From an uncultured bacterium (GTDB lineage: Bacteria > Fidelibacterota > Marinisomatia > Marinisomatales > TCS55), in the NCBI GenBank assembly GCA_964538995.1, contig CAZIFK010000001.1, positions 5,827-69,826 of the forward strand: a stretch of DNA of 64,000 bases, in the 5' to 3' direction. Below the pieces are notes generated by a model that did no database searches, was not told the origin of the DNA, and saw only the letters and a list, made by a program, of their open reading frames with translations. Shown in pieces: positions 262 through 64,000 of this stretch. Numbering within the stretch: position 1 is the stretch's first letter; each line of letters begins with the position of its first letter. The position numbers and the translations under genes were made by a program.

Positions 262-401
262 AATTTATTTGTTAATTGTTTTTAACAACAGGTTAATGAA
301 TTTAAGAAATTAGAAATAGAAATTACTGTGATTCAAATTTAGATGATAATATTTCATCAATTAATTCCTAATAATTAATAATAAACTCATTAAGTTTTGT
401 T

Positions 402-1253: not shown

Positions 1254-1260
1254 ACCTAAT

Positions 1261-2712: not shown

Positions 2713-2986
2713 TCAGTATTTCTTTCATAATATTTACCAGCGTCCCTTTATTGTCAAATATGTTATGATACTATGAATCATTCTTAATTCATCCACTCTT
2801 CTCGATCCAGTAAGTAACCTTGCTGGGAGCATCTTTAACATGAATTTAATTTACATAATCATAGCAGTGACAACTAATATTAGAGAACACTTGTTAGGTA
2901 TCCTGCTGATGGCGCCTGTTTATCGGCATTACTTTTACAATATGAAACATGATGGATGTAAATGGAGGTGTGATAGAGCCTAAATC

Positions 2987-3199
2987 TTATTCCTCTGCCT
3001 GGGATTCATCATCAACATCCCTGGCTTGCCGATGCATGCGTGCATCCTGCACGATTTTTTTTGCCATTTCTTCTACTACCTTTTTTGAAAGTCGTCCCTC
3101 ATTAGCCTTTTTCCGATCTGCCAAGAGATTTTTAATTATCATGAAAACCAAATAACAGCCGCCGATAACGAATGTAATTATTAGTATTATATTCCACAT
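2987..3199 (-). CDS. small single-pass membrane protein, hypothetical
   Basis: 70-aa ORF with an ATG start, an N-terminal TM segment (IILIITFVIGGCYLVFMII) and a charged tail. No homology recognised. Confidence 0.35.
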   Translation of the reverse strand: MWNIILIITFVIGGCYLVFMIIKNLLADRKKANEGRLSKKVVEEMAKKIVQDARMHRQARDVDDESQAEE

Positions 3200-3408
3200 A
3201 ATTATGTAAAAACAGCTAGTGAAACATTAAGTAGTTTTACAAACTCTTGAATTTGAATCTTATTCAATTTGCTTTTCCCATTTAACATATCTTCAACAAT
3301 TCATTGTTTAATTATAATTCTCCGCATAAGTAATATAAAATGTGATTTTCATGGAAAACAACCGGTTCAATGTTTACAAAATTTATAATATGAAAAATTA
3401 CATCTGAT

Positions 3409-3447
3409 CAGGCTATGGCACCGCAACTAACGCGATGCCATAGCCTG
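3409..3447 (-). terminator. hairpin downstream of the 946-aa T9SS cargo gene
   Basis: Perfect 12-bp stem CAGGCTATGGCA (3409-3420) / TGCCATAGCCTG (3436-3447) with a 15-nt loop, 54 nt after the stop codon. The T-run on the minus strand is displaced by ~11 nt, so this is not a textbook intrinsic terminator. Confidence 0.4.
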
Positions 3448-3500
3448 TGATTATATATCAAACGATGTCAAGAAGATGAAATAAATGCTTAATCTATTTT

Positions 3501-6341
3501 CTATTTAAGGATCATCATTTTTCTTGTTTGCCTAAACTCCCCCGCATCTATCCTATAGAAGTAAATCCCACTGGTCAGATCAGACGCATTGACCTTATGG
3601 CGATATCGTCCAGCCGGTAGATTATCATTCACCAGCGTCCTGATTTCATTACCCAAAATGTCGTACACAGTTAATGTTACTCTTGAATCCTGGGGCAGGT
3701 CATAGGTGATGGTGGTCACCGGATTAAAGGGATTAGGATAGTTTTGAGCCAGGCCATACTTATCCGGGATTAAGGTTTCGTTACCCATACCCAACGGATC
3801 CGCAGTGGCTTCATTGGAATATCCACTCTCATTCCCGTTGAAGTCCATGGCTGTTACCACATAGTAATAGGTCTCACCGGCGGTTACACCGGCATCGACA
3901 AAGGCCGTATCGCTTGTAAAATCGTAGGGTTCATCTGGTGTAAATCCAGGTACTGTTCCCCGATAGACAGTAAAATAGTCAAAATCAGGTGCCGGAACCG
4001 GATGCCAGGATAATTCGACCTGTACGTTTCCATCTCCAGCCGCTGCCAGTAATCCCAGTGGTGGTGACGGATGGAGATTATCTACCGAAAATCCCCGCAT
4101 GGGGTTGGAATCCATAAAGAAATTCGGGTCTTCCGTGTGGGCCGTGACTATATAGACAGACCAAACCGTATCAAAAGGTGTGGCATTACCCAAAGTTGGT
4201 ACTACAGTGCTGTAATCACCATAACCATGCCAGGGAACCATACTGATAAAGTCCCACAGGGGTTGATCGTGATCCCCACCGTGATCGCCATCGCCGCCGG
4301 TGCCAGGTACTTGGCGCCAGACACTAAATTCCGTAAAATACCCCCACCAACCGGGATCGCCAGCTTCCCACTGTATTCTCACTTTATATCCCTGGTCATC
4401 CGGAATATCGTCCACTGTGTATAAATGCGGTCCCCAGAAATCTCCTCCTCCATATTCCATGGCAATATCCAACCAAATGGTTTCATCTGTACTGATATAA
4501 ATGGAGTCGATATGATACGGTTCAAATCCTTCTGCATGAACCTCCCCTTGATACCACATATTGCCAAGAACAGGAACACCGAAATATCCATCCATTCCTG
4601 TCCCCCTACTGAGTTGAATGGAATCATTATAGACAAAAATCCATGCACGTTCGATTGGAAAATCATCAACAGCTGAAAACACCTGACCCTCAAACCAAGC
4701 ATTGGCCATAACCAGCTTAAAATCAATTCCGGTAGTGTCGGATGATACTTTGTATCCTTGAGGAATGCTAATCAAGACATCTTCACCAAAATCAGTCCAT
4801 AATCCTACCCAATATTCACCAAAATCATCCAGATAAGAAGAGACAGGAAGCACATAGCTGACTGGTGATGTATAAACATCGTCACAGAAATCAATCCAGT
4901 TGTAAACCTGCGTTTCAAAGTGAAAGGTATAAATACCAAAGCAATTAAAATCTGCAACGGTTGGAAATTCAATGGATCCGCTGATCGATGCATCATTGGT
5001 AAACAATTTAAAGTGGGTTAACTTGGGATCATCTATGTAATCTCCAGTATTAACAAGAACTCCTCTTCCTTGAGGGATCATATAATCCGGCCAAAGGGCT
5101 TCCTCGTCTACGTTTAATTTCCACATTGTTCCCCACCATTCATCGCCAAATAGATTATCCCATGCCATTACGCCCATATAATAGTGGCCACTACCATCTG
5201 TGTCAACTTCAACCCAGAAGGGTCCGTTCTCTGCCCAGACGGTCATGTTGCTAACAGGAACACCGTCCTGGTCATTTACGTTACCGGCGATCCAAGCGTT
5301 TGCTTCCACCAAGTTAATATTTTCACCAGTGAGTGCGCCAACAACATCCACCCATTGTAAAAATTCTTCGGGAAACAGCTGCGGTTCCGTTACGCCAAAT
5401 ATATCGGAGGCAAGGAGGTAATATAGCCCCGGTTCTTGTACGTGAATGCTGTAGGCACCGTTTGTATCTGTTACAGCAGCCCAGATTTCTGTTGGTCCTT
5501 CATGTTCATCATGTTCATCATGTTCATCATGTTCATCCATTCCTATTCCCCAAGATGGAATAGCTAAGATAATAAAATTTGTAGTAGCTGGTATTACCGC
5601 GCCGGAAATAGAATAACCTGTATCTAATCCTTCAATAAGCAGGTGTGCCGTTGCTGATCCGCCACCATCCGTCGCTGTGAAAAAGATCGAAGCGCCTTCC
5701 AAGAAAAAAGGCATCATATCCTCATCTTTACCAGTCGAATCCACACTAAAAGTAATTTCAAAGACCCCGACAGCAGGATTCTCATCCTCGTCATCATTAT
5801 CAAAGATCCACATGTCACCTTCATCAAAAAGCCAGATATCGGTTGTATTATCAAATACGCCGTCACCATTATCAAGATAACCACCGATACTTGCTGAATC
5901 CTCATCAGTCGAAAAATAGACCGTTATTGTAATAGTATCTCCTAATGTGTAAGTGGTATCCGCTGAACCATTGAATAAGATTTGAATCACATCCATGGAG
6001 TTTCGATTGTATTTATGCATGATAGGGGAAGGGCCTTTTTTCAGGAATGATGGTGTCTTGTCCGGAAGCCAGCCTCCACGTTTTTGCCTGTTGAATTCTG
6101 TTTGCATTGCTTTATTACTTGCCCCAGTTTTCGTCATTAATTGCGGTTTTTGCTGTTTTAAAATTCGCAATTGCTGAATCTTTTCCAAGTCTAAAACCTG
6201 TTTCATTTCAGTATTTATAGTAGAAACAGATCGATCAGAAATATCAAGCTTTGTCTTTTCCAATCCAAAAACAAACGTAAAAAGCAGCAGAACGAGAAAG
6301 GGTTGAAATAATTGACGATAGTTTTGATTGTTGATTTTCAT
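3501..6341 (-). CDS. large secreted T9SS cargo protein (FN3-like module plus type-A C-terminal sorting domain)
   Basis: Signal-like N-terminus. C-terminus is NYPNPFNPVTTITYDLPQDSRVTLTVYDILGNEIRTL...SGIYFYRIDAGEFRQTRKMMILK, the T9SS type-A CTD pattern. FN3-like stretch VELSWHPVPAPDFDYFTVYRG...YYYVVTAMDFNGNES. Acidic His-rich inserts are present. Confidence 0.85.
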   Translation of the reverse strand: MKINNQNYRQLFQPFLVLLLFTFVFGLEKTKLDISDRSVSTINTEMKQVLDLEKIQQLRILKQQKPQLMTKTGASNKAMQTEFNRQKRGGWLPDKTPSFLKKGPSPIMHKYNRNSMDVIQILFNGSADTTYTLGDTITITVYFSTDEDSASIGGYLDNGDGVFDNTTDIWLFDEGDMWIFDNDDEDENPAVGVFEITFSVDSTGKDEDMMPFFLEGASIFFTATDGGGSATAHLLIEGLDTGYSISGAVIPATTNFIILAIPSWGIGMDEHDEHDEHDEHEGPTEIWAAVTDTNGAYSIHVQEPGLYYLLASDIFGVTEPQLFPEEFLQWVDVVGALTGENINLVEANAWIAGNVNDQDGVPVSNMTVWAENGPFWVEVDTDGSGHYYMGVMAWDNLFGDEWWGTMWKLNVDEEALWPDYMIPQGRGVLVNTGDYIDDPKLTHFKLFTNDASISGSIEFPTVADFNCFGIYTFHFETQVYNWIDFCDDVYTSPVSYVLPVSSYLDDFGEYWVGLWTDFGEDVLISIPQGYKVSSDTTGIDFKLVMANAWFEGQVFSAVDDFPIERAWIFVYNDSIQLSRGTGMDGYFGVPVLGNMWYQGEVHAEGFEPYHIDSIYISTDETIWLDIAMEYGGGDFWGPHLYTVDDIPDDQGYKVRIQWEAGDPGWWGYFTEFSVWRQVPGTGGDGDHGGDHDQPLWDFISMVPWHGYGDYSTVVPTLGNATPFDTVWSVYIVTAHTEDPNFFMDSNPMRGFSVDNLHPSPPLGLLAAAGDGNVQVELSWHPVPAPDFDYFTVYRGTVPGFTPDEPYDFTSDTAFVDAGVTAGETYYYVVTAMDFNGNESGYSNEATADPLGMGNETLIPDKYGLAQNYPNPFNPVTTITYDLPQDSRVTLTVYDILGNEIRTLVNDNLPAGRYRHKVNASDLTSGIYFYRIDAGEFRQTRKMMILK
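5501..5536 (-). repeat. perfect 4 x 9-bp tandem repeat (CATGTTCAT) inside the T9SS cargo gene, encoding (DEH)4
   Basis: Read directly: catgttcat x4 at 5501-5536. It translates on the minus strand to MDEHDEHDEHDEHEG. Confidence 0.9.
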
Positions 6342-6477
6342 AGTAAACCTCTTTGTTTATTGGCCTTTTGAGTGATGACGTAATACAATTATCTTATAAT
6401 AATAACCTAAACTAATTATATCTTTCAACAATTGGTGTGCTTTAAATCACATGAAAATTTGTATTCAATTTTATCAT

Positions 6478-6690
6478 TTAATCTCCTAATAAATAAATGA
6501 TGAAAAATGCCATCAGGATGAGGACGATAGATAATACACGGTAAATGTTCATTCCGCTGGTTGGATGATATGTCGAATTGGGTTCACCTTCCTCGCTGTA
6601 TTTTCTTCGGTTGTAGGAAATTAGCTTAAAACTGAAAACCAGCAGTCCTACGAAAAAGAAAAGAACACCGATGAGAGTCAGGGAGTTCAT
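6478..6690 (-). CDS. small two-TM membrane protein, hypothetical
   Basis: 70-aa ORF with an ATG start and two hydrophobic segments (LIGVLFFFVGLLVFSF; VLSIVLILMAFFIIYLL). Confidence 0.4.
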   Translation of the reverse strand: MNSLTLIGVLFFFVGLLVFSFKLISYNRRKYSEEGEPNSTYHPTSGMNIYRVLSIVLILMAFFIIYLLGD

Positions 6691-6723
6691 AACTATGGAT
6701 TAATGTAGATCTTCAAAATAGAT

Positions 6724-7074
6724 TTAACAAGTCAAATGAAGAACAGCATTTGCGTTGGTGCCTTTCGATTCGAGATATTTACATGCTTCGGCTGTGGTCA
6801 TGATTTTCAAATCCACACCCCTCTTGCGGGCTTCTTCCTTCAAAGCATCAACCACAGGCAGACTACCGTAAATTCCGGTGCCGATAATTAGTTCTGTGCA
6901 CTCCCACGGTATATTTTCATGGGGCGTTAGAGGTGTATGCCCAAACCGGGATTTCATGGCGCGGCTTTTGCCCTTTTTCCGTTTAGCGATTTTTCCTCTA
7001 TCAATGACTACATCGAAATCATACTGTTTCCCGTCGATTTCGATACATCCGAATGAGGAATAATTCAATTTCAT
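6724..7074 (-). CDS. Mth938-like (DUF498/NDUFAF3-like) domain protein
   Basis: 116 aa. The pattern F...IEIDGKQYDFDVVI...GHTPLTPHE...LIIGTGIYGSLPV...AVLHLTC matches the MTH938 family as I remember it, including the terminal H-x-T-C. Confidence 0.7.
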   Translation of the reverse strand: MKLNYSSFGCIEIDGKQYDFDVVIDRGKIAKRKKGKSRAMKSRFGHTPLTPHENIPWECTELIIGTGIYGSLPVVDALKEEARKRGVDLKIMTTAEACKYLESKGTNANAVLHLTC

Positions 7075-7118
7075 AATACCTCCTTATTTTATGTTTCGAA
7101 AAAGTTTCACCTATAAGA

Positions 7119-8084
7119 TTACTCTTCAATGTCTAATAAATGTTTCCTCATAAACTTATTGGCAAACTCAAACGCTGCTTTTCTTGATTTCGGATTTCCA
7201 CCGTATGTGGGACCTCGTTCTGCACAGAATGCTAAACCGATTTTCTGTAAAAATGGCTTTGTCATAGGTATATCCATAAAATTCATTAGAACCGCGCCGT
7301 CCTCTCTCATCATCAATCGACAATCTGTAAAAGAATAGCCATTCTCATCAATTACGGGTGAAGCAGAGCGATCGAAGGAATGATGGGAATTCTCATACAC
7401 TGTTAATTCAATATTGGCTCCATCCGCCTGCATCATCGAAACCAGTTCTTCACACGCAGCAGCGGGGGTCCAATTATCCAGATCACCGATTAAAATATGG
7501 ATGGGAGCATCGGTAAAGTCCATTATTTCAGGCATGATGAAACAAGGTGGATAAAAAGTCAGGTGGGCTGCAAAAGACAAATCTTCAGATATGGCACGTT
7601 TTAAGGGTTGCCATGCAGAAAACAGAGTCACCCCTCCCCCCAGACTCCATCCGGTCATAGCGACACGGTCACTATCGATACGAGGATCTTTGCTCAACTC
7701 CTCCAAAGCTCGAAAAGCATCCAGAACCATCATTGCTGTTGTGACTGAAACCTGCTGCCCAACCGTAGATGTTACCCCCCGGCTGGCAAAACTTTTTAAT
7801 TCAAATGTAGCTATGCCCATGTCTCTATACATCTGCAAATATTCGTAGTTATGTTCTCCCCATCCCAAACTACCGGCAGCACCAATAACTAATGGCAGAT
7901 TTTTATGCTCAATACCTTCTGGAAACCTTAAAATACCAAATACGTTTTGTGATTCCTGGTTTTCCAAATCAGTAATTATATGGAAAAATGAAAAGGGATT
8001 GGCACTGGTGAATTCTATTCGTTCACCCTTATCATTAGGAAATAGAAAGGACACTAGAATTAAGAGATACCTCATTTGTTTCAT
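7119..8084 (-). CDS. alpha/beta hydrolase, dienelactone-hydrolase-like, secreted
   Basis: Signal peptide, nucleophile elbow GWSLGGG, and a downstream D and H (YENSHHSFD) consistent with a Ser-Asp-His triad. Confidence 0.7.
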   Translation of the reverse strand: MKQMRYLLILVSFLFPNDKGERIEFTSANPFSFFHIITDLENQESQNVFGILRFPEGIEHKNLPLVIGAAGSLGWGEHNYEYLQMYRDMGIATFELKSFASRGVTSTVGQQVSVTTAMMVLDAFRALEELSKDPRIDSDRVAMTGWSLGGGVTLFSAWQPLKRAISEDLSFAAHLTFYPPCFIMPEIMDFTDAPIHILIGDLDNWTPAAACEELVSMMQADGANIELTVYENSHHSFDRSASPVIDENGYSFTDCRLMMREDGAVLMNFMDIPMTKPFLQKIGLAFCAERGPTYGGNPKSRKAAFEFANKFMRKHLLDIEE

Positions 8085-8109
8085 TTTTTTCTACCTTTCA
8101 TTTTAGATT

Positions 8110-8865
8110 CTATACAATTGGCTTTTGCCCAACAATTATTCCATACCCCGTATGCCTGCTGGCAAAGATACGCTCGGACTGAAAAACGGTCCAGAGCCCT
8201 TTTAGTCCCCAAGAATTAAAAACGGTTTGGACAATTTTCCACTGGCCCTTTACCCCTAAGTTTTTCTTGGATTCTCTCATCCAAGCTGGGATTAATTCCG
8301 AACGGTCTATACCATTGCAGTTTTCCAGTCCAGCCTGTTGAAACAGATGAACCCATCCCTCCAATGTTTCCGGTCGCTCGCTCTCTATTTCCGCGAGCTT
8401 TGTTTTCATTTTTTCCGGTGTATCATTTCTCCAACAAATATCATGAATACCAACATATCCTCCGGTCTTGACAACGCGCACCATTTCTGTTATCGCACGT
8501 TGTTTATCCAATACACATGTAGTACACTCAGAAATGACAACATCAAATGAATGATCATCAAAAGGCAGGTTATGGGCATCCCCCACAGAAAAATCTATAG
8601 TCAGTTTCCGTTGTATTGTCTTCTCCTTGGCACGAGCCACCATAATTTCAGATGCATCAATTCCAATGATGCTGCTTTTGAATTCCTCTGCCAGGTAACA
8701 GGCGCTTTCCCCTGTCCCTGATGCCACATCCAATAACTTGGTATTTTTATCTACATGGCACAATTCTGCCAATTCATGTGTGGTTATCATGCCACCGGGA
8801 TGGAGAGATTCTACTTCTATTACGCCGCTTTCAACGAGGTTTTCAAGTGAAGGTTTTGAGGTCAT
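8110..8865 (-). CDS. class I SAM-dependent methyltransferase
   Basis: Motif I LLDVASGTGESA, with a downstream FDVVIS and GGYVGIHD typical of Methyltransf_11/25-type folds. Confidence 0.75.
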   Translation of the reverse strand: MTSKPSLENLVESGVIEVESLHPGGMITTHELAELCHVDKNTKLLDVASGTGESACYLAEEFKSSIIGIDASEIMVARAKEKTIQRKLTIDFSVGDAHNLPFDDHSFDVVISECTTCVLDKQRAITEMVRVVKTGGYVGIHDICWRNDTPEKMKTKLAEIESERPETLEGWVHLFQQAGLENCNGIDRSELIPAWMRESKKNLGVKGQWKIVQTVFNSWGLKGLWTVFQSERIFASRHTGYGIIVGQKPIV

Positions 8866-8867
8866 TC

Positions 8868-9770
8868 TTATGCCTGATTTTCAAGAATGCTTCGCAACGA
8901 TCCACCTGCATTCTTAAGCAGTATTTCCGATTCTTCCAAGGTGCATTGCTTAATTACCATTACCACCGCATTTTTCACTGAATTTTCTGCTGTAATCAGA
9001 GCATTCCGGGCTTTTCCATGTTCCAGTCCAGTTAATTGACTGATAATTCGAGACCCCCGATCCACAAGTTTATCATTCACTGTCATGAGGTCAACCATAA
9101 GGTTGCCGTAGACTTTGCCCAACTGAATCATCGTTGTTGTAGAAATCATATTCAATACAAGTTTCGTGGCAGTTCCAGCCTTCATACGTGTGGACCCGGT
9201 AATGACTTCCGACCCCGTATCTACTTTGATGATCACATCCGTTTTGACATTAATAAACGGCTCTGGGTTGCAGATCAGGTAAACCGTTTTTGCTCCACAG
9301 GATTTTCCGAATTCAATTGCCGAACCGACATATGCAGCACCACCACTAGTGCTAATACCGATGATCACGTCACCTTTTTCTAAACCAAAATTTTGTAAAT
9401 CTTTAACCGCATTTTCAGGTTTATCTTCCGCTCCTTCAATAGACTTGCGTAATGCATCGTCTCCCCCGGCGATGATACCATTGAACCAGTCAGACGGTAC
9501 AGAAAAAGTAGGTGGCATTTCAGAGGCATCCAGAACACCTAGGCGGCCACTGGTTCCCGCTCCGATATAAACAACTTTCTTCCCCTCCCGAAGTGCGGTG
9601 GTTGTCAGTTGAACGGTTTTTTCGATTTCAGGTATGACTTCACTTACTTTTAATGCGATCGTTTGATCTTCTCTATTGATCACCTCCAGTATTTCTCGTA
9701 TGGCCTTTTCGTCAATCCTATACGAGGCTGGATTCTGCTGCTCTGTTTTCAGGTCGCTTCGATCTATCAT
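8868..9770 (-). CDS. murQ: N-acetylmuramic acid 6-phosphate etherase
   Basis: SIS-domain signature GAGTSGRLGVLDASEMPPTF, ISTSGGAAYV and ITGSTRMKAGTATKLVLNMIST are characteristic of MurQ. Confidence 0.85.
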   Translation of the reverse strand: MIDRSDLKTEQQNPASYRIDEKAIREILEVINREDQTIALKVSEVIPEIEKTVQLTTTALREGKKVVYIGAGTSGRLGVLDASEMPPTFSVPSDWFNGIIAGGDDALRKSIEGAEDKPENAVKDLQNFGLEKGDVIIGISTSGGAAYVGSAIEFGKSCGAKTVYLICNPEPFINVKTDVIIKVDTGSEVITGSTRMKAGTATKLVLNMISTTTMIQLGKVYGNLMVDLMTVNDKLVDRGSRIISQLTGLEHGKARNALITAENSVKNAVVMVIKQCTLEESEILLKNAGGSLRSILENQA

Positions 9771-11146
9771 AGTTCAACTTTTGAAAAATAACGACGGGTT
9801 TCCCTCATTACCTTTTTTGAAAGTAATATTGTTGATATCATTGTTGGAATAGCCATGAGCGCAAACATCCCGTCAATAACGTTAATTGCAATATCAATTG
9901 AAACGATGGAAGCCAATATAATACTAATCACATAAAACCAATTATAGACCGGTTTCCATTTCGTTCCAAAAAGGTAGCTTGTACATTTACGTCCATAGTA
10001 AGAATAACCAAACATGGTTGAGAGACTGAAGCTAAACACCGCAATGACCAAAAGTACCTGACCAAGAAAACCCAATTCCCGTTCAAATGCCATGGCTGTT
10101 AGAGTAACGCCATTCACATCAGAAGAATGCACACCGGAGAGCAGGATGACAAAACCGGTGATTGAACAAACCACAATAGTATCTATAAACGGTCCAATCA
10201 TTGCAACCAGCCCTTCCCGGACAGGTTCCTTGGTTTTTGCGGCGCCGTGCGCCATGGATTCCGTTCCGATTCCCGCTTCGTTTGAAAAAGCTGCCCGTTT
10301 AATACCAATGACAATAATTGCTCCGAGAGAACCTCCTAAAACAGCATCACCCGTAAAAGCATCCTGAATTATGGAATTAAATACACCCGGTAGATCACCC
10401 AAATGTTTGAACAAGATGAGTATGGCTGCTAATATATAAATGGCGACCATAAAAGGTACCATTCTTGAGGCAACTAATCCGATACGGCGAATCCCGCCGA
10501 AAATGACCAACGACACGATGAAAGCAACAATAATTCCAGTGGTCAGATCTCCGACAATTTGATTACCAACGAAAAAGTTGTTGGGACTATAGATAAGATC
10601 CCTTACAATTTGAGATAATTGATTAGCTTGGAAAAGAACAAGGCAGCCAACCAATCCGGCTACACTGAACAGAATAGCCAACGGTCTGTATTTTAATCCC
10701 AGTCCTTGTTCCACAACATACATCGGTCCACCCTGAATTTCACCTTGATCGTCTTTTCCCCGGTACATGATTGAGAGAGTACACGTAAAGTATTTAGTTG
10801 CCATTCCAACTATGGCACTAACCCACATCCAGAATAAGGCACCGGGACCGCCTGTGTGAATTGCAAGCGCCACACCAGCGATATTTCCCATCCCAACTGT
10901 ACTTGCCAACGCGCTGGACAACGCCTGAAAATGGGTAATCTGTCCGGGATCATTCGCATCATCGTATTTACCCCGCAGAATCTGAAAAGCATGTCCCAAA
11001 TATCGAAAAGGAATGAAGCGGCTGTACAGTGTAAAATACAAACCACCGCCGACAAGTAGGATCACCAACGGTGTTCCCCACATTAATCCGGAAAAATCCG
11101 CAGTCCATTTCTCAAATACATGCCAAATCGTCGTATCAAGTTCCAT
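9767..11146 (-). CDS. alanine/glycine:cation symporter (AGCS) family transporter
   Basis: ALSSALASTVGMGNIAGVALAIHTGGPGALFWMWVSA is the AGCS family signature. The protein is multi-TM. Its stop overlaps the murQ start (ATGA at 9767-9770). Confidence 0.85.
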   Translation of the reverse strand: MELDTTIWHVFEKWTADFSGLMWGTPLVILLVGGGLYFTLYSRFIPFRYLGHAFQILRGKYDDANDPGQITHFQALSSALASTVGMGNIAGVALAIHTGGPGALFWMWVSAIVGMATKYFTCTLSIMYRGKDDQGEIQGGPMYVVEQGLGLKYRPLAILFSVAGLVGCLVLFQANQLSQIVRDLIYSPNNFFVGNQIVGDLTTGIIVAFIVSLVIFGGIRRIGLVASRMVPFMVAIYILAAILILFKHLGDLPGVFNSIIQDAFTGDAVLGGSLGAIIVIGIKRAAFSNEAGIGTESMAHGAAKTKEPVREGLVAMIGPFIDTIVVCSITGFVILLSGVHSSDVNGVTLTAMAFERELGFLGQVLLVIAVFSFSLSTMFGYSYYGRKCTSYLFGTKWKPVYNWFYVISIILASIVSIDIAINVIDGMFALMAIPTMISTILLSKKVMRETRRYFSKVEL

Positions 11147-56795: not shown

Positions 56796-57091
56796 TGCCT
56801 TTGGCATGGCATATCGTACAATGTCCGAATAGAAACTAACTTTTCTTTATTCCAATGGAAATAAGTGTTGAAAACTGAACGAGCATCAGATAAATTCATA
56901 CTAGCTTTTTAACAATTCCCGCTTGAGACACGTTATTTCAGGATCTTCAATAAATTGCCCTTGGAGGCTAACTCTGTCGGCAAAAAACAGGCCTTTTCTG
57001 ATAAGTATCGGGATGAAGGAAGTTTGCTGTTGGTGGGAGGCCGCCACTCATGTTAAACATGATCCTGAAAAACACTCAATGCGGGATATTT

Positions 57092-57127
57092 AAAAACCCC
57101 GGCTTTTAGAAAAATGCCGGGGTTTTT
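57092..57127. terminator. strong bidirectional rho-independent terminator
   Basis: AAAAACCCCGGC-ttttagaaaaat-GCCGGGGTTTTT: a 7-bp GC-rich core stem extended by A/T runs on both sides, 82 nt downstream of the DnaB-like gene stop. Confidence 0.85.
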
Positions 57128-57208
57128 ATTTATAACAATTGGAGGGAACAAAAATGTGAATGAATGAGTGATTGATTGGATGATTAGATAGGTTTTTGAG
57201 ATATTCAA

Positions 57209-58195
57209 TTACTCAAATCTTGCATATTTTTCTACGAACTTTAAATTTACATATCCGGTTGGACCGTTTCGGCTTTTTGCTATGATTACCTCTGCCTTCC
57301 CCCTGTCAGTTTCATCAAGAGTATCTATCCATGGACGATAAAGAAGCATGATTGTATCGGCAGATTCTTCAATTTCAACCGCATGGTGAAAGTCACTCAA
57401 TACCGGTCGTTTGTTTTTTCGATCTTCGGGTTTTCGTGTTAATGAGGATGTAACGATAACAGGTATTTCCAGTTCTACTGCCATCTGTTTTAATAAATGA
57501 TAGGTAAGTTGTTGTGCATCTCGTTTTTGGATTGCTTGATTATTATCAATAATCAGAAGTTTAATATCGTGTTCTGCTTTCAGTCGTATGGCGTTATGTT
57601 TCATCTTCAGAGATGATAAAGATATCGTATCATCAATGAAAATTGAAGTTTCACCCAGCGTAGCCATACTCGATGTAAAAGCTTTCCATTTTGATTTTGC
57701 AAGTTTTCCTGTCCTTACTAAGTGTGTATCCACTTTTGCTTCCATGCACAATAAACGAAAAGCAATCTGTGTACTGGTCAAGTCCATAGAAAAAAATCCT
57801 ATGGGTACTTTTTCAACTACTGCTGCATGTCGCATAATGGTTAAAGCTAAAGCCGTTTTTCCCATACCCGGACTGCCTCCTATTATGTAAAGGTTCCCGG
57901 CATCGAGTCCGCAAAGCATTTCATCCAATTCCAGCAAACCGGTAGTTAAGTATGTTGGCTCTTGTTTCCCTGAATGTACTTCATTCAGTATTTCAATAAC
58001 TTGATTCAAATGTAAATCAATATGTTCAAAGCCTGTTTTGAGTCCATCCGTGTATAGCATCAAAAGTGACCTTTCAGCCTTCATCAAAGCTTGGTCATAG
58101 GAAAGTTTCTTATCAGCGGATATTGTTAATATATCCTCGCCAACCTGTTTAAGTTTTTCTCTTAATTCTTTTTCTGTTGGTTTTGATTTACTCAT
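57209..58195 (-). CDS. DnaB-family RecA-like ATPase, C-terminal domain plus linker only, with divergent catalytic motifs
   Basis: LTTGLLELDEMLCGLDAGNLYIIGGSPGMGKTALAL (Walker A), FSMDLT, LLIIDNNQ (Walker B), SSLTR, KRPVLSDFHHAVEIEESAD and IAKSRNGPTG. Only ~85 aa precede the ATPase core. AGGAG SD 6 nt before the ATG. Confidence 0.8.
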   Translation of the reverse strand: MSKSKPTEKELREKLKQVGEDILTISADKKLSYDQALMKAERSLLMLYTDGLKTGFEHIDLHLNQVIEILNEVHSGKQEPTYLTTGLLELDEMLCGLDAGNLYIIGGSPGMGKTALALTIMRHAAVVEKVPIGFFSMDLTSTQIAFRLLCMEAKVDTHLVRTGKLAKSKWKAFTSSMATLGETSIFIDDTISLSSLKMKHNAIRLKAEHDIKLLIIDNNQAIQKRDAQQLTYHLLKQMAVELEIPVIVTSSLTRKPEDRKNKRPVLSDFHHAVEIEESADTIMLLYRPWIDTLDETDRGKAEVIIAKSRNGPTGYVNLKFVEKYARFE

Positions 58196-58222
58196 ATCTT
58201 ACTCCTGTGTTTGCCTTATATT

Positions 58223-58477
58223 TTATGAGTTTGATTTATATGCTTTAACTAACTCCAATATCGATTTCAATGCCAATTCTGAATATTGTTCGATTGCCGT
58301 GAGCAAATGAGTGTCCATACAAGATTCGATCATATAATTGTTCAAACATTCCATTTTTTTAATATCAATGGTAGTAGACGTAATTTTCATTTCCATTTCA
58401 TTATGGTATGTTTCCATTGCTTCATTCTGAACTTTATCCCAAATAACCAGTTTCCGCTGTAGTTCTTTAAATTGCAT
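58223..58477 (-). CDS. 84-aa hypothetical protein (helical), middle gene of the operon
   Basis: The ATG at 58475-58477 is preceded by AAGAGGA (6-nt spacer), which starts right after the TAA of the AAA+ gene. The longer track ORF (to 58552) would overlap the AAA+ gene. No motif recognised. Confidence 0.55.
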   Translation of the reverse strand: MQFKELQRKLVIWDKVQNEAMETYHNEMEMKITSTTIDIKKMECLNNYMIESCMDTHLLTAIEQYSELALKSILELVKAYKSNS

Positions 58478-58490
58478 GAGAGATCCTCTT

Positions 58491-60389
58491 TTACGCTTGA
58501 AATCCAATTGTTTGATATTTACCATCAAACATACTGGCTGATTCGATTTCACAATACTTTATCAAATCTATCTGCATTAAAATTTTGCTTTGCCCTTTCC
58601 GGGATGCAGCTTCCGTAGCGGCATTTTTCACAATGATACTGATCTGTCCACCGGTGAGAGAATAAGATTTTGCCAGTGATGTTGTATCAATTTTTTTAGA
58701 TCCGGGGATTGAATTGGGCAAATGCAGTTTCCAAAGAGCAATTCTTTCCTCTATTCCGGGAAGTGGAAATTCCAATTTCAGGTGGAATCTTCGACTGAAG
58801 GCCAAATCAAGATTATCCCGTAGATTTGTTGTTGCTATCATGACTCCCTTAAGACGTTCAAATGCCTCCAAGAAAAGGTTTTGCATTGTATTGTACATTA
58901 CATCTACAGATGTATTCATTGTGCCAACACGTTTGCTTAAGAATTGATCCGCTTCGTTCAATAATAATACCGGTGGATTATCCGTTCTCCGTACGATCCT
59001 CTCAAAGACAGAAAACATTCTTCGGACGTTTTTCTCACTTTCCCCTACCCATTTGGATTGGATTCTGGAGATGTCGGTAATCAGTAACTTCTTACCGAGA
59101 GCATCGGCAATTGTCCCGGCTGCAAATGTTTTTCCTGTACCCGGTGAACCGTAAAATAACATCAACAATCCAGACTCTAATTTTTTATTCATTTTACCAA
59201 CTACGGATGTTTCTCCATCAAATAATCCCCAGGAAGAAAGAGTTTGATCTACATTATCCCGATATTGGAAAAGTGAGGTTTGGATTGTTTTTTTCATCTC
59301 CATCGGCAATATCAGATCTCGCATACTATGCGTTGGATTAAGTAGAGTAAACATATCATCACCTTTTAAGATTTGAGACAGCCGTTCAGCATCATTGATT
59401 GGTGTTTTCATAATGATTTGCCGGGTAATGTCTGGAGAGCTCCGCACTTCACCACCTTTGCTTCGGAAAAATATGCTTTCTGATAGCTCAACTAATCCAT
59501 GCTTAACAAGGTTTGATTCGATGGAAATGTATTTCCTGTTCATATACAACTCATGTTGGTCACTGCTTACGATACCGATGACTTCATCCGTATCTGTTTG
59601 ACGGCCTTCCAAATCCTCTTTAATAAGATACATGAGAATGACAGCTTCGTTGTGTTCTAATTTGTATTCATTGATAATATCCAATAGTGGAAATTCTCTT
59701 TCTGTCTTTTCCATTCGTCGTTCAATTCTTTCTTTCCATTCCATGGCTTTTAAGTAATCGTTGGCTGTACTTTCATCAAGTTCAGAGTCAAATCGACGAT
59801 TTACAAAACTGCAATAATTAAATTCACGTAATTGTTCAACGTATGAGAACCAGTCTGCTACAAACTCCTTATTTTTCAGATAGGGTTCATCAAACTTTAA
59901 ACTGACATCTTCAAATTCATTCAGTAGTTTTCTGGTGAAAGAACGATGGAAACAAATATCATATTCTAATAAATAATATTTGAAATATTTGATACTGGAA
60001 GAGGACTTTTGTTCTTTGAGGTTGAGTACCTGCTTTTTCTGTGTATAGAAAATGTTTTTCTTAAGTAAAGCAATAATTCTGTCTAGTTGTTCGATACAAG
60101 AATTCCGATCCGGAAAAACAGTATTCAATAATTCAATAGGATCAAATTGGAGTTTTCTCTCAACAATATGTTCAAACCAGGCAGAAGCAATAATAAGAAC
60201 ATCTTCGTGTTCAAGTGAATAATATGAGAAATCCGGATGCTGTGCGATTTTATAAGATAGTTCAGTTAATTCATCAGAATAAATATCCGACCTTGCTTTA
60301 TCAGAGTCCTCTTTCCTTCCAGAATTATGAGGAAAGAAGGAACCGATTTTCTGAAAGATGTTTTGTGGATTTGGGTTTTTTGGCACCAT
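58491..60389 (-). CDS. classic-clade AAA+ ATPase with a ~400-aa N-terminal region of unknown function
   Basis: LMLFYGSPGTGKTFAAG (Walker A), WVGESEKNVRRMF, VLLLNEADQF (Walker B with Asn for Asp), IATTN (sensor 1), LAFSRRF (second region of homology). AAGAGGAG SD 4 nt before the ATG. Confidence 0.85.
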   Translation of the reverse strand: MVPKNPNPQNIFQKIGSFFPHNSGRKEDSDKARSDIYSDELTELSYKIAQHPDFSYYSLEHEDVLIIASAWFEHIVERKLQFDPIELLNTVFPDRNSCIEQLDRIIALLKKNIFYTQKKQVLNLKEQKSSSSIKYFKYYLLEYDICFHRSFTRKLLNEFEDVSLKFDEPYLKNKEFVADWFSYVEQLREFNYCSFVNRRFDSELDESTANDYLKAMEWKERIERRMEKTEREFPLLDIINEYKLEHNEAVILMYLIKEDLEGRQTDTDEVIGIVSSDQHELYMNRKYISIESNLVKHGLVELSESIFFRSKGGEVRSSPDITRQIIMKTPINDAERLSQILKGDDMFTLLNPTHSMRDLILPMEMKKTIQTSLFQYRDNVDQTLSSWGLFDGETSVVGKMNKKLESGLLMLFYGSPGTGKTFAAGTIADALGKKLLITDISRIQSKWVGESEKNVRRMFSVFERIVRRTDNPPVLLLNEADQFLSKRVGTMNTSVDVMYNTMQNLFLEAFERLKGVMIATTNLRDNLDLAFSRRFHLKLEFPLPGIEERIALWKLHLPNSIPGSKKIDTTSLAKSYSLTGGQISIIVKNAATEAASRKGQSKILMQIDLIKYCEIESASMFDGKYQTIGFQA

Positions 60390-60511
60390 ATAACTCCTCT
60401 TTTTTAAAAGAAGTTATATGGTTAAAGAGTCAGATTGGGTCGTTATAATTTAATATTATTTAAAACGATTACGCTGAATATACAATAATGCTATAAATAA
60501 TACATGTGTGA

Positions 60512-62467
60512 CTAATTCATGAAAAAAGTTTCTTGTAGGTTCTGTTTTTCTCGAAATGAATCAACGACTTCAAATCTATCAAAAGTTTCTCCTGGTAACC
60601 TCCATCTTTCCAAAGCAAATCTTATCATATCTGTTTCACGTTGATCATTAATATGAGAAGATAGTTTACGAAAATAGTTTTTTGTTTTTCTTAAATAGTT
60701 TAATGTGTTTTCAACAAACTTTACTGAATCGTTATAAAATATTTCGAGATTTCGAATTTGTTTCATTTTAAAAAAACCGAGATTTGTTTCATTCATCCTT
60801 CGAATTTTTTCTTCAATAGAAAAATCTTTTAGTTTAATATTTTTTGATAGTCCCATTAAAACAAAATTGCCTAGTCTTCTTTTCTCGAGGTGTTTTTCCC
60901 CGAATTCAATTTTTAAATTATTAGATGCCCATATATGTTCTAGCGAAAGAACATCATTATTTTCGACACCTTTGTCAAGACGGCTAATCAATATATTTTC
61001 AATATTAAAACGGTGTCCATCTTGCAATTGGAGAAATTCCTCATACGAAGCAAGGAAAAACCTAATTCCACTCCAATAATAATAGTCTTCGGCTTCGTCT
61101 AAATCGATGGTTAAAGATTGTATAAATTTTTTCTCATTACAATGAATTTTTGCAAATTCGATTAATTCCAATTTTATCCATTGGAAGATATCACCTTCAA
61201 TTTGCTTATTACCATATTTACTATTACTATCACCACTCGTACTACCATGATAAAAATTATATGCCCATCCAAAAAGGTCACCCTGCTTGGAATCTGCTCT
61301 ACTGGTCACCTTTGGAAGAATATATACTCTGAAATTCACTTTCTCAATTATTTCAAGAATTTCAGCAACATTTTTGGGCTGATCCATTCTGGTCATAGTC
61401 GCTAAAAATAGAGGCAATATGGATGCATTTACACTATGACATCTCAGTCTCTTTAATACAGTCCCAATTGCTGCTTTCTCCTCGCCTTGAAAAGTGATTT
61501 CAAAATGTCCACCATTGAATAGAAATGAATAAAACTGAGAACATTGTTCTAGAAATTTTATAAAGTCATAAATTTTATCTACGTTGTTCTCTATCTCTAC
61601 CTCATTTGTTAAATATGGAGAATGAATAATTTTTAATTCATTATATACATACCAACTTTTTGATTTACTTGAATCATAAAAAACGATATAACAATTTCTT
61701 AAAAACCGATTTTCATCATCATTTGACACTATGCCTGCAATATTAAGATTTTTTTGAATATTCACCCATCTTTTGTTTATTGAATCACGAAGTGTGCTCT
61801 TATCGTAGATTGATGCATAATAAATGAAATAATTTTTGATTTTTTCTAATTCAGAAAGTTCTTTTCCTCTATTGTTTATTACCTCAAACATTATTCCAAG
61901 TTCTTTATCATTGTTTGGTGAAAAAACAAGAAATCCAAGTTTTTTCGTAACGGTATTTAAAATTGTATCTACGGAGATATTTTCTTCCTCTAACCAATTT
62001 TTAAAAAACACTTTAGCATCTAATAATCGTTGATGCGATTTTAATTGTGGATTTTCGTTTTCTTCGTCATTAATGATTCTATTATAAAAAAATATCCTTG
62101 TCTCTTCATTTGTTTCAAGAACAAACTTCTCATTTCCCCTTTTTCCCCGCTTTATAAAAGTTTCAATTATTTCTCTATATTTAATTTTATCGAAATTATA
62201 TATTTCCTTTAATAGAATAAGTATTGACGTTAGTCTTTGTTGGCCATCAACAATCTCAAATTTATATTTATCAATTGGTGTTACTACTATCGTGCCAGTG
62301 AAATGTAAATGATTTTTATTCGATATATTTTCTATATCTTTTCTCAAATCTTTAAGATGTTCTTCTTCCCATGTGTATCCTCGTTGGTAATCAGGGATTT
62401 TGAAATATCTATCAGTTATTATTTCTTCAATTGTAATTAATTCTTCGTTGAAATTATTTGTGTTCAT
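60512..62467 (-). CDS. GmrSD-type protein: N-terminal DUF262 (ParB-like NTPase) plus C-terminal DUF1524 (His-Me finger nuclease)
   Basis: FKIPDYQRGYTWEEEHLKDL and FEIVDGQQRLTS (DUF262). LSLEHIWASNN ... LGNFVLM ... KN (DUF1524 H-N-N layout). The gene is conspicuously AT-rich. Confidence 0.8.
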   Translation of the reverse strand: MNTNNFNEELITIEEIITDRYFKIPDYQRGYTWEEEHLKDLRKDIENISNKNHLHFTGTIVVTPIDKYKFEIVDGQQRLTSILILLKEIYNFDKIKYREIIETFIKRGKRGNEKFVLETNEETRIFFYNRIINDEENENPQLKSHQRLLDAKVFFKNWLEEENISVDTILNTVTKKLGFLVFSPNNDKELGIMFEVINNRGKELSELEKIKNYFIYYASIYDKSTLRDSINKRWVNIQKNLNIAGIVSNDDENRFLRNCYIVFYDSSKSKSWYVYNELKIIHSPYLTNEVEIENNVDKIYDFIKFLEQCSQFYSFLFNGGHFEITFQGEEKAAIGTVLKRLRCHSVNASILPLFLATMTRMDQPKNVAEILEIIEKVNFRVYILPKVTSRADSKQGDLFGWAYNFYHGSTSGDSNSKYGNKQIEGDIFQWIKLELIEFAKIHCNEKKFIQSLTIDLDEAEDYYYWSGIRFFLASYEEFLQLQDGHRFNIENILISRLDKGVENNDVLSLEHIWASNNLKIEFGEKHLEKRRLGNFVLMGLSKNIKLKDFSIEEKIRRMNETNLGFFKMKQIRNLEIFYNDSVKFVENTLNYLRKTKNYFRKLSSHINDQRETDMIRFALERWRLPGETFDRFEVVDSFREKQNLQETFFMN

Positions 62468-62740: not shown

Positions 62741-64000
62741 TTACGGGTGACAATTGCTGTGCTTGGCTAAATATTGATGTATCTCCACCATCGCCATCGT
62801 ATCCTGACCACAATATTCTTTTAGTTCATAAATCAATTTACTCTTTTCACTACCGTAAGCCAATTGAATCATTTCATTCCAGGTAACCTGTGCTTCGATA
62901 CCATCGCTAACGTCCAGGGTCTCATAACTCATTGAAGGTACAATAACCGGCAGGACACTTTTAAGGCTGTTTGATCCCTTGAATCGATAATCCGTATAGT
63001 ATTTTCTAAAAATGACAAGTTGATCCCATAGGCGGTCAATGATTAACTTTAGTTGTTCTGAATACTCCGGGCACCACTGCGCGAGTTTGTTCATTATACC
63101 CTTTTCGAACCCCGCATTATAAGCAATCACTGATCCGGATTCTCCAATAGTTTTTGTCAACGATTCTGTTAATGATTTCCGTGGGTCATTTTCCGATTCG
63201 TGCAGATATTCAATATGCTCAAGATTCCCTTTCTTATCCATGATATGACAACTGTATTGGAATGGAAACTGCTCATAGGGATGCATGCCGTCAAACTTGG
63301 GAATCGCCGGGCTGTCTGTTTCAAAGTCAAGAAAATGAAGGGGATATTCAAGCTTGTTTAATTCTCCTGCTATGCCATTCCAATCAATTATCGGTTTTTG
63401 ACTTTCCAAGCTTCTTATATACTTCTTTTGATTTTCGTTAAGTGGAAACTCTGCAGATAGTTTATCAATACCTATCCTGTTATCTTCTATCAAATATTCT
63501 TTATCTGTCCAGCGTAACCTTGGAATATTGAAGATGGAATGTTCCGGTACATTTTTCCAGCAGTATCCAACAAACGGACAATCGTAGGGATTGCTGCAAT
63601 GTTGTCCAATAAGAACATTTGGTTCGGACTTATCCAACATGGATTTATATTCTGAAAGTTTTTTAGGAACTGATGTTAATACAGCATTCACTGGTTCTGT
63701 GATATCTTCCGTTCTGAAAAGATTGGTGAGATCAGGATACACACAATCACGATTAATATGTTTCAGAAATACACGCTTCATTTCTAACCCACATCCCTGG
63801 AGAACCCACGTCTGCACAGCCACATCATGAATATTGACTTCTTTAACGTCGGTTGAAGATTTCACCTCGATCATATTCCAACTGCCCAAATCATTCCGCA
63901 GAATAATGTCTGGTCGGACAAGAACATTCTCATAAATAAAACATCCTTCGAAAATGACATCTGTAGAATTATCCAATGCTTTTTTCGTTTGTTTAATAGC
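62741..64000 (-). CDS. DUF2779-family protein (Cas4/RecB-like PD-(D/E)XK nuclease N-terminal part plus DUF2779 C-terminal domain), 5' end outside the window
   Basis: RPDIILRNDLGSWNMIEVKSS (D...E-x-K), Cys cluster CSNPYDCPFVGYCW, LHFLDFETDSPAIPKF...FPFQYSCH. The frame stays open upstream of the track's TTG start (…AIKQTKKAL-DNSTDV) to position 64000. Confidence 0.7.
   Translation of the reverse strand, partial: AIKQTKKALDNSTDVIFEGCFIYENVLVRPDIILRNDLGSWNMIEVKSSTDVKEVNIHDVAVQTWVLQGCGLEMKRVFLKHINRDCVYPDLTNLFRTEDITEPVNAVLTSVPKKLSEYKSMLDKSEPNVLIGQHCSNPYDCPFVGYCWKNVPEHSIFNIPRLRWTDKEYLIEDNRIGIDKLSAEFPLNENQKKYIRSLESQKPIIDWNGIAGELNKLEYPLHFLDFETDSPAIPKFDGMHPYEQFPFQYSCHIMDKKGNLEHIEYLHESENDPRKSLTESLTKTIGESGSVIAYNAGFEKGIMNKLAQWCPEYSEQLKLIIDRLWDQLVIFRKYYTDYRFKGSNSLKSVLPVIVPSMSYETLDVSDGIEAQVTWNEMIQLAYGSEKSKLIYELKEYCGQDTMAMVEIHQYLAKHSNCHP

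Follow-up and report, generated by a model that had tools for sequence, protein, structure and literature searches.

A WYL-headed gene array with a common upstream box encodes a winged-helix AAA protein and a truncated DnaB-type protein in uncultured Marinisomatia

What might a AAA ATPase, an 84-residue protein and a truncated relative of the replicative helicase DnaB do when they are encoded side by side? The question is raised by three genes, designated g1, g2 and g3, on the minus strand of a 64,000-nt stretch of DNA (hereafter the window; contig CAZIFK010000001.1 of assembly GCA_964538995.1, positions 5,827 to 69,826) from an uncultured bacterium of the Marinisomatia. An earlier sequence-only reading regarded them as a stand-alone operon and a candidate anti-phage system. 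Comparison with the genome beyond the window and with related loci places the trio elsewhere: it is the last (3') unit of an eight-gene array that is headed by a gene for a WYL-domain regulator and has one upstream box in common. We see an even chance that this array is an inducible DNA-conflict regulon, i.e., a defence island under a single WYL regulator that is switched by single-stranded DNA (ssDNA). The regulon and its anatomy are well supported, and the assignment to defence is moderately supported.

One box before several units of the array

The window ends at position 64000 within the gene for a DUF2779 nuclease (62741..64000, minus strand; DUF2779, E 8e-43), a core gene of the array. 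The same genome was read past this edge (locus L028, 531-4781), and eight co-directional genes were found in the order WYL regulator (330 aa), Fic protein (281 aa), a 221-aa protein, DUF2779 (487 aa), GmrSD (651 aa), the AAA protein g1, g2 and g3, the last being referred to as pseudo-DnaB. The trio is thus one unit of a larger set and the view of it as a stand-alone operon had to be abandoned. The approximately 60 nt located 5' of the AAA start are conserved across loci whose upstream genes differ, and they contain a 19-nt box, ATAACGAC-N3-AATCTGACT (consensus ATAACGAC-N3-A(A/T)CTGAC(T)), which reads ATAACGACCCAATCTGACT in the window (60428-60446, minus strand). The box occurs three times in L028, each time in gene orientation: before the WYL gene, before the pair encoding the 221-aa protein and DUF2779, and before the AAA gene. 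No box precedes the GmrSD gene in the window genome. The AAA gene is preceded by the box in all nine of the compared loci that encode the WYL regulator and in none of the eight that lack it. A weight matrix also retrieved sites outside its training set, namely before the DnaB_C gene of L004, before the 224-aa/DUF2779 pair and the restriction endonuclease (REase) gene of L023, before the WYL gene of L022 and before the pseudo-DnaB units of L030 and L031. Within approximately 320 kb, 17 sites scored at least 17 bits, all of them intergenic within arrays and in gene orientation, and no box was detected before the flanking housekeeping or repair genes; shuffled controls gave 0-8 matches of at least 12 bits per 320 kb. 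A metagenome scan with the box returned 57 matches, two of which lie in arrays (L054 and L081), and the other 55 were taken as chance matches since they are not accompanied by array genes.

The regulator heading the array in L028 is a 330-aa protein with WYL and WCX domains and a helix-turn-helix (HTH) region. Regulators of this HTH-WYL-WCX architecture are encoded in ten loci (L001, L004, L007, L015, L022, L023, L026, L027, L028 and L031) and at one further place (P0082). The best PDB match of the array WYL protein was Caulobacter DriD (E ~1e-6), over the WYL-WCX part alone. DriD is a WYL activator that is itself activated by ssDNA. Its site is ATACGAC-N7-GTCGTAT, overlapping the -35 position, and the paper on DriD discusses its sites at the bapE, recJ and dnaG promoters. 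WYL repressors of defence systems have been reported to sense ssDNA too (PMC11662680). The box described here has the ACGAC half-site in common with the DriD site and is not palindromic. Judged from its distribution, it is a candidate operator of the array's WYL regulator. The sequence TATAAC, located 3' of the box, was considered as a -10 element, but its bases also make up one arm (5') of a hairpin that sequesters the Shine-Dalgarno (SD) site, which leaves the assignment ambiguous.

The trio forms a single transcription unit and has a conserved box and leader of its own upstream. The three genes, g1 (60389..58491, minus strand, 632 aa), g2 (58477..58223, minus strand, 84 aa) and g3 (58195..57209, minus strand, 328 aa), are separated by spacers of 13 nt (58478-58490) and 27 nt (58196-58222), and the SD sites, read directly in the sequence, are AAGAGGAG-4-ATG for g1, AAGAGGA-6-ATG for g2 and AGGAG-6-ATG for g3. 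The co-directional genes, short spacers and individual SD sites given by the sequence-only reading were all confirmed from the open reading frames (ORFs) and the sequence. The strong terminator that it placed behind the trio was confirmed by fold energy (-22.3 kcal/mol, z = -5.0); it is a bidirectional intrinsic terminator at 57091-57128, at the 3' end of the unit, with a 13-bp G+C-rich stem, an A-run on its 5' side and a T-run on its 3' side, and it escaped a simple hairpin scan owing to its interrupted loop. The ORF list offers an alternative start of g2 at an upstream GTG, giving 109 aa; the 84-aa form was adopted because the homologues begin at the same MQFKELQ/MKFKELQ and the SD site fits.

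The leader of g1 folds into a hairpin (60385-60422, minus strand) with a 17-bp stem, in which the SD site (60394-60401) and the AUG are buried (-20.8 kcal/mol, z = -5.6 to -7.6). Of 11 homologous leaders, 10 have the SD site or the AUG paired in the minimum-energy fold; six of these folds are significant, among them that of L004 with a different stem sequence. The RNAalifold consensus support for the hairpin was weak, with a covariation term near zero, and a search of the window against Rfam found no family. According to these folds, the hairpin may act as a second, translational lock on the trio beside the box, and a double lock of this kind would suit a gene whose expression does harm. By its box, the trio would also be one member of the WYL-linked regulon.

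The three proteins

The description of g1 as approximately 400 N-terminal residues followed by a single classic AAA module was borne out, the N-terminal part giving only a weak match to the winged-helix family PF22977 (residues 252-306, 20.6 bits versus a cut-off of 27 bits). The N-terminal module (residues 1-400; 59190..60389, minus strand) was modelled by AlphaFold as helical with two winged-helix-like units (predicted local distance difference test, pLDDT, 73-79), and a Foldseek search of this module against the PDB gave a best E of 0.15 with a weak resemblance to winged helices of the MarR/PadR type. Full-length homologues of g1 number in the hundreds (45-89% identity), and most of them are precomputed as PF22977 plus PF00004. 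A profile of the N-module found 240 representatives among 1.84 billion proteins (E <= 0.001), nearly all of 590-650 aa, and the distant members retrieved with it reach 38-64 bits with PF22977, above the threshold. Since the profile finds these representatives, and the distant ones pass both PF22977 and AAA, g1 is assigned on sequence grounds to a small, uncharacterised winged-helix + AAA family. In a pattern-limited scan, AAA genes of the g1 type were found in 17 of 185,579 species genomes.

Pfam AAA matches residues 410-543 of g1 (E 6e-23), and the module with its lid extends over residues 410-606 (58572..59162, minus strand). By both sequence and fold, the core belongs with the Vps4/katanin/Cdc48 group of the classic clade; the top Foldseek matches were p97, katanin, Vps4, Rpt and Msp1, and the search with full-length g1 was swamped by this core. 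The Walker A motif (GSPGTGKT), pore loop 1 (SKWVGESE), the sensor-1 Asn (TTN) and a short second region of homology (SRH) with two arginines (AFSRRF) are those of a classic AAA protein. The Walker B motif (LLLNEAD) departs from the hhhhDE pattern, with an Asn aligned with the Asp of Cdc48/p97 and the Glu kept. This substitution was found in 91 of 102 sequences in the family alignment (101 representatives plus g1), in which the catalytic Glu, the Walker A Lys and the RR pair were each kept in 101 and the aromatic pore residue in all 102. With the exception of the Walker B Asn, the module is thus predicted to have the features of a substrate-threading classic hexamer, i.e., the pore loop, Arg fingers, sensor 1 and catalytic Glu. 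In g1 (window 58491-58510) and most family members, an [IV]GF motif lies at the C-terminus or within two residues of it, and it recalls the IGF loop of ClpX or the HbYX tails, which dock AAA motors onto partner rings.

In g3, DnaB_C was matched at residues 83-328 (E 4e-69), and no match to PF00772, the globular N-domain, was obtained. The protein scored 271.9 bits with TIGR00665, below the cut-off of 385.25, in an alignment that starts at model position 103, and 161 bits with phrog_19. The sequence-only reading had stated that the N-domain was lost and only the linker helix kept; the globular domain is indeed absent, and the helical hairpin is retained as well, together with the linker helix and the RecA-fold C-terminal domain. 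The motifs of g3 were compared with those of solved DnaBs and of full-length and truncated relatives. The Walker A motif (GSPGMGKT) and the Walker B Asp (LLIID) are retained, and substitutions affect the catalytic Glu (SLEM>SMDL), the sensor Gln (SQLSR>SSLTR) and the Arg finger (LSDLRESG>LSDFHHAV). With these three replaced, g3 cannot be a normal helicase, and it no longer qualifies as the working DnaB-type ATPase that it was taken for. The Arg finger is missing in every truncated relative and the catalytic Glu in most of them, which also argues against a machine composed of two NTPases. The truncated close relatives number about a dozen (225-335 aa) and their motifs vary within the clade; ORFs of this type are intact in at least eight contigs, with an invariant Walker A. 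The next-closest relatives are full-length (~455 aa, PF00772-bearing) DnaBs of Marinimicrobia/Fidelibacterota (42-45% identity), which points to a lineage-specific derivative of the host-type helicase. From these comparisons, g3 derives from the replicative helicase of its own lineage by truncation and is predicted to be catalytically disabled. The DnaB_C-only proteins that adjoin g1 homologues in L004 and L022 are approximately 26% identical to g3 and degenerate differently, so that the DnaB_C-only genes near AAA genes fall into three divergent lineages at differing positions, two of which carry a box of their own.

The 84-aa protein g2 is acidic (pI ~5.2) and helical, and gave no match in Pfam, NCBIfam, PADLOC or PHROGs. 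Its close relatives amount to five among 5.8 billion proteins, and it was seen solely in loci with an AAA gene and a DnaB_C-only gene (the window, L026, L027 and L004). Confinement to loci with both partners is the pattern expected of a connector, and g2 is a candidate connector between the AAA protein and pseudo-DnaB. The possibility that g2 is a split-off remnant of the DnaB N-domain was rejected (hhalign probability 0.2%, a reversed control scoring at least as well). The 92-aa protein of L022 and other small downstream proteins were likewise rejected as remote relatives of g2, as they have no similarity to it and represent at least three unrelated families.

The ratios of non-synonymous to synonymous substitution rates (dN/dS), compared among the window, L026, L027 and L023, were 0.08-0.13 for g1, 0.19-0.24 for g2 (two informative pairs), 0.22-0.31 for g3, 0.07-0.13 for DUF2779 and 0.03-0.09 for the WYL gene. 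These low values indicate that all five genes are functional and under purifying selection, with the constraint on g2 and g3 somewhat relaxed. For the same genome pairs, dS was ~0.5 for g1, g2 and g3 versus 1.0-1.4 for WYL and DUF2779, with codon-usage effects possible. The lower values hint at a more recent recombinational exchange of the AAA-g2-g3 block compared with the remaining array genes.

Neighbouring genes and readings of the array

Approximately 25 non-redundant loci with g1 homologues were compared, from Neomarinimicrobiota, Cloacimonadota, Tenebribacter, Calditrichota-like organisms and one metagenome-assembled genome labelled 'Gemmatimonadota'. The AAA gene, the most widely kept gene of the trio, is the constant element and the downstream genes vary: g2 and pseudo-DnaB in the window, L026 and L027, a 224-aa protein and a REase in L023, HNH proteins in L001, L003, L009 and L018, DUF2779 in L008 and L021, unrelated small proteins in the tandem arrays of L012, L013 and L019, and nothing in L007 and L020. 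In the loci of the Marinimicrobia type, the AAA gene is accompanied by the WYL regulator and by DUF2779 with a conserved partner of ~200-224 aa. This partner, the ~221-aa protein of L028, always precedes DUF2779 (195-235 aa in L023, L026, L027, L030 and L031), and it gave no Pfam or PDB match. DUF2779, interpreted from its domains as a fusion of a Cas4-like nuclease with an exonuclease (PMC13621843), is encoded near the AAA gene in the window, L001, L007, L008, L021, L022, L023, L026, L027 and the P0082 place, as well as in the AAA-less arrays L030 and L031.

The slot between DUF2779 and AAA is occupied by GmrSD in the window and L023, by PDDEXK_4 in L027 and by two unknown genes in L026. The GmrSD-type nuclease gene of the window (60512-62467, minus strand; GmrSD_N, 113 bits) is cargo of this variable slot, and Pfam matches bore out the earlier observation that it and DUF2779 lie directly upstream of the trio in the same orientation. 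The compositionally patchy, nuclease-rich setting was also real: G+C content (GC) is 0.26-0.31 in GmrSD, 0.36-0.39 in the trio and host-like in DUF2779, the host value being ~0.40. With its low GC and no box, GmrSD looks like a recent insertion into the slot. Across the loci, swappable nuclease cargo (GmrSD, PDDEXK_4, REase, HNH and DUF2779) was found in two slots. The neighbours of the arrays and AAA genes include MmeI-type restriction-modification (RM), McrBC, MNT/HepT, PIN and Fic genes, and in phyla without the WYL gene, AAA repeatedly adjoins HNH, McrBC, RM and toxin-antitoxin (TA) genes. A second recurrent nuclease pair linked with AAA consists of DUF2130 (a predicted PD-(D/E)XK protein) and a long DUF2779 (~650 aa), and was observed in L001 (13713-16942), L007/L025 and the P0082 place. 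Tandem AAA-small-AAA(-small) arrays were observed in Tenebribacter and Cloacimonadota (L012 420-4555, L013 420-4843 and L019 9989-12955), and each AAA paralogue in them precedes a different, unrelated ~84-aa protein. An ankyrin-repeat protein is encoded upstream in L016 and L019, and a UDG-family gene lies downstream in L013.

A gene of the DnaB family lies within ~3 kb of the AAA gene in the window clade, L004, L022 and the P0082 place, at differing positions and orientations; such proximity is far above what chance would give for a single-copy gene. In the P0082 place, the gene is full-length and lies directly upstream of WYL-AAA. Regarding the synteny of the trio elsewhere, the block is kept in the close relatives L026 and L027 and its components recur rearranged in the distant L004, but the association is not obligate, as AAA and pseudo-DnaB are each found apart. 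More than 15 loci carry AAA but neither g2 nor g3. In L023 these two are replaced, and L005 and L006 combine an intact AAA with a frameshifted g2 and a stub of g3. Conversely, pseudo-DnaB directly follows GmrSD in L030 and an unrelated 307-aa gene in L031, with no trace of AAA or g2 in either locus. The box and leader before pseudo-DnaB in L030 (4640-4700) are nearly identical to the AAA leaders of L023 and the window, which implies that AAA, g2 and ~80 codons at the start of g3 were cleanly deleted. Downstream of pseudo-DnaB, L030 has another box (5508-5526), which precedes a gene cut by the contig end. The 307-aa protein that takes the AAA-g2 place in L031 (5532-6455) matches no family and has a twin-arginine-like N-terminus (SRRSFL plus a hydrophobic stretch); the stop of its gene overlaps the start of pseudo-DnaB.

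A role of the array in DNA conflict is suggested by the swappable nuclease cargo in two slots, the RM, McrBC, TA and Fic neighbours, the tandem AAA paralogues with unrelated small partners, the patchy distribution and the double lock on expression; the foreign GC of GmrSD likewise suits a conflict-type context. Also counted in favour of the conflict regulon were the common box, the ssDNA-linked WYL regulators, the AAA motifs, the motif loss of DnaB_C-only proteins in three divergent lineages, the purifying selection on the trio, the confinement of g2 to loci with both partners and the DnaB_C genes found by candidate retrons. Several observations weigh against this role. No catalogued defence system matches the array. 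The Walker B Asn may make the ATPase activity of g1 slow or altered, and the box may serve as an activator site that overlaps the -35 position, serve as a repressor site or belong to the transcript. Furthermore, the occurrence of pseudo-DnaB under the same promoter without AAA or g2 in L030 and L031 shows that the AAA-pseudo-DnaB partnership is not obligatory.

The remaining objections are at the same time arguments for the strongest rival, to which the conflict regulon is preferred and which we regard as possible and distinctly less probable. According to it, the array is a host regulon of the DriD type, SOS-independent and responding to DNA damage or replication stress through an ssDNA-sensing WYL protein. 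DUF2779 would process ends, the AAA protein would strip stalled proteins such as the helicase, and a dominant-negative helicase subunit would brake replication, the restriction, toxin and HNH genes being hitch-hikers in a convenient inducible locus. DriD, the closest solved homologue and nearest characterised relative of the regulator, governs a DNA-damage response and not defence, and the ACGAC half-site is common to both. In Caulobacter, bapE encodes a nuclease and dnaG the replication primase, and these would parallel the DUF2779 and DnaB-like genes. The core genes have host-like GC and are under strong purifying selection. AAA proteins are 50-60% identical across phyla, with the N-module as conserved as the ATPase core (dN/dS ~0.1), and conservation this strong is unusual among defence genes. 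A full-length DnaB directly precedes WYL-AAA in the P0082 place, and DUF2779 is quasi-essential in the minimal Mycoplasma JCVI-syn3.0. The arrays are flanked by housekeeping genes with no integrase seen, and the AAA gene of L020 is solitary among such genes. GmrSD, without a box and with foreign GC, fits a hitch-hiker. What disfavours a damage regulon is the small and patchy distribution of the family (the 240 representatives and 17 species genomes given above), the tandem duplications with unrelated small partners and the absence of the box before housekeeping or repair genes in ~320 kb. Moreover, even cargo such as the L023 REase carries the box, and the AAA gene repeatedly lies by HNH, McrBC, RM and TA genes where WYL is absent.

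The self-contained anti-phage system of the sequence-only reading, with two oligomeric NTPases and their tiny partner acting jointly and independently of the neighbours, is improbable. The trio does have its own box, leader and terminator, it is kept together in the window, L026 and L027, where its dS is lower than that of WYL and DUF2779, and the three components recur in the distant L004. Yet g3, lacking the Arg finger, catalytic Glu and sensor Gln, does not make a second working NTPase. AAA lacks g2 and g3 in more than 15 loci, pseudo-DnaB lacks both partners in two, and elsewhere g2 and g3 have decayed (L005 and L006) or been replaced (L023). The common box ties the unit to WYL and DUF2779, and the exact trio is limited to a handful of near-identical lineages, in keeping with the five relatives of g2.

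The sequence-only reading had also named a decayed replication module of a mobile element as an alternative. No integrase, primase, initiator or origin repeats were found in the locus gene lists, nor any tRNA, and neither 50,697 records of phages nor 72,556 of plasmids contained the g1 N-module, which speaks against such an origin. Among 2.9 million viral contigs, one prophage-adjacent AAA gene was found (L029); there, AAA follows McrB-McrC by divergent phage portal and large-terminase genes (108-9848), and is located at a prophage border or is prophage cargo. That g3 is a decaying dnaB duplicate or mobile-element replication remnant with a functionless juxtaposition to AAA is very improbable: its motifs are degenerate and variable, its relatives differ in length, stubs alone are left in L005 and a full-length dnaB lies by WYL-AAA in one locus, but g3 is under purifying selection (dN/dS 0.22-0.31), its ORFs are intact in at least eight contigs with an invariant Walker A, three divergent DnaB_C-only lineages lie by AAA (two with their own box), the signs of mobility are missing, and its nearest relatives are chromosomal DnaBs of the same phylum and not phage proteins (TIGR00665 272 versus phrog_19 161 bits).

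If the array is indeed a conflict regulon, its action might be envisaged as follows. The WYL protein would sense ssDNA arising from damage or infection and switch the array on. The winged-helix module would recruit the AAA protein to DNA or to a DNA-bound protein, and the AAA motor would pull its protein client apart, while in the lineage of the window g2 would couple it with pseudo-DnaB. As pseudo-DnaB is predicted to be unable to unwind DNA, its most likely role is that of a non-catalytic mimic of the C-terminal ring of the helicase. It could cap or poison DnaB-type helicases, whether those of the host or of a phage, or serve as bait for the factors by which such helicases are loaded or hijacked, so that replication would stall while the DUF2779 and GmrSD nucleases act. 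This combination of an AAA extractor, a g2 coupler and a pseudo-DnaB mimic is the most economical mechanism for the trio; it is speculative and we hold it to be unlikely. More doubtful still is the version in which pseudo-DnaB is a decoy, a catalytically dead copy of the host DnaB ring made upon the ssDNA alarm and handed by g2 to the Vps4-like unfoldase, which would dismantle the complex; it would bait phage factors that hijack or load DnaB, or cap DnaB-type helicases, and such a decoy seems improbable. If true, it would be a bacterial analogue both of the 'integrated decoy' immunity of plants and of p97-driven helicase unloading.

Should the reading hold, the array would represent an undescribed regulon in the poorly studied uncultured Marinimicrobia and their relatives, in which one WYL-type sensor governs several swappable cassettes via a common box. 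It would add three uncharacterised parts to those known from conflict and repair: the small winged-helix + AAA family, marked by an Asn in Walker B across its members and by [IV]GF at the C-terminus; DUF2779, a Cas4-like/exonuclease protein, together with its ~220-aa partner; and a lineage of dead DnaB helicases that selection has maintained. That an essential replisome component has a dead copy under an alarm promoter suggests replication control or immunity by helicase mimicry, which is a testable idea, and the box offers a handle for defining the targets of WYL regulators outside model organisms.

Comparison with known systems

The proposal that no named defence system fits the trio was upheld, since PADLOC, NCBIfam and PHROGs returned generic cores alone. 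In PADLOC-DB v2, g1 and g3 gave only generic AAA/P-loop matches, and none were obtained for g2, the 221-224-aa proteins or DUF2779. Among the neighbours, DUF2130 weakly matched LmuB (E 9e-4), a 156-aa HNH-like protein weakly matched PtuB, and GmrSD matched HEC-06/Orf5, a separate single-gene system. A literature search on DUF2779, DUF2130, PF22977, DnaB_C with defence, and WYL with AAA found no description of the array.

The best PADLOC/NCBIfam match of g1 was IetA of IetAS (Gao_Iet), likewise a classic-clade AAA protein. The AAA core alone aligns, however, with 84.7 bits versus a cut-off of 510; the 400-aa N-module of g1 is unrelated and no IetS protease was found in the array. Stand-alone DnaB_C proteins have been described as recurrent accessories, with an unexplained role, next to candidate type XI-like retrons (bioRxiv 10.64898/2026.05.14.725207), the nearest precedent in the literature. 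A DnaB_C-only gene in a defence-type context is what the array has in common with them, but it encodes no reverse transcriptase, and the likeness is one of domain content. As with the BrxR and CapW repressors of BREX and CBASS, which sense ssDNA, a WYL gene heads a co-directional set rich in nucleases and ATPases; in contrast to them, no BREX or CBASS component is encoded here and several promoters, rather than that of a single operon, bear the box.

At the level of single proteins, g1 belongs to the same AAA clade as Vps4, katanin, Msp1 and Cdc48/p97, with the pore loop K-W-V-G-E-S-E, a short SRH with the RR pair and sensor 1. It differs from these motors in combining one AAA module with a bacterial winged-helix N-module, the Walker B Asn-Glu and the [IV]GF tail. 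In eukaryotes, p97 unloads the CMG helicase, and the association of g1 with a protein resembling a replicative helicase would be analogous, although the helicase analogy is our inference. The resemblance of g3 to DnaB extends over the hairpin, the linker and the whole RecA-fold domain, with Walker A and the Walker B Asp kept, and the differences lie in the missing globular N-domain, catalytic Glu, sensor Gln and Arg finger and in a score below the family cut-off.

The DriD regulon of Caulobacter offers a comparison for the array as a whole: the regulator has the same architecture, the site contains ACGAC and precedes several co-regulated units, and the promoters discussed as having DriD sites include those of a nuclease gene and a replication gene. 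The similarity is weak (E ~1e-6, over WYL-WCX), and the box differs from the DriD palindrome. The targets in the array are also unrelated to those of DriD, being a winged-helix AAA protein, DUF2779 and pseudo-DnaB clustered with swappable nuclease cargo. Taken together, the observations of the sequence-only reading are confirmed and its interpretation is supported in part, and the module is seen as a variant, built of uncharacterised components, of the WYL-regulated loci that combine ATPases and nucleases in DNA conflict or the response to damage.

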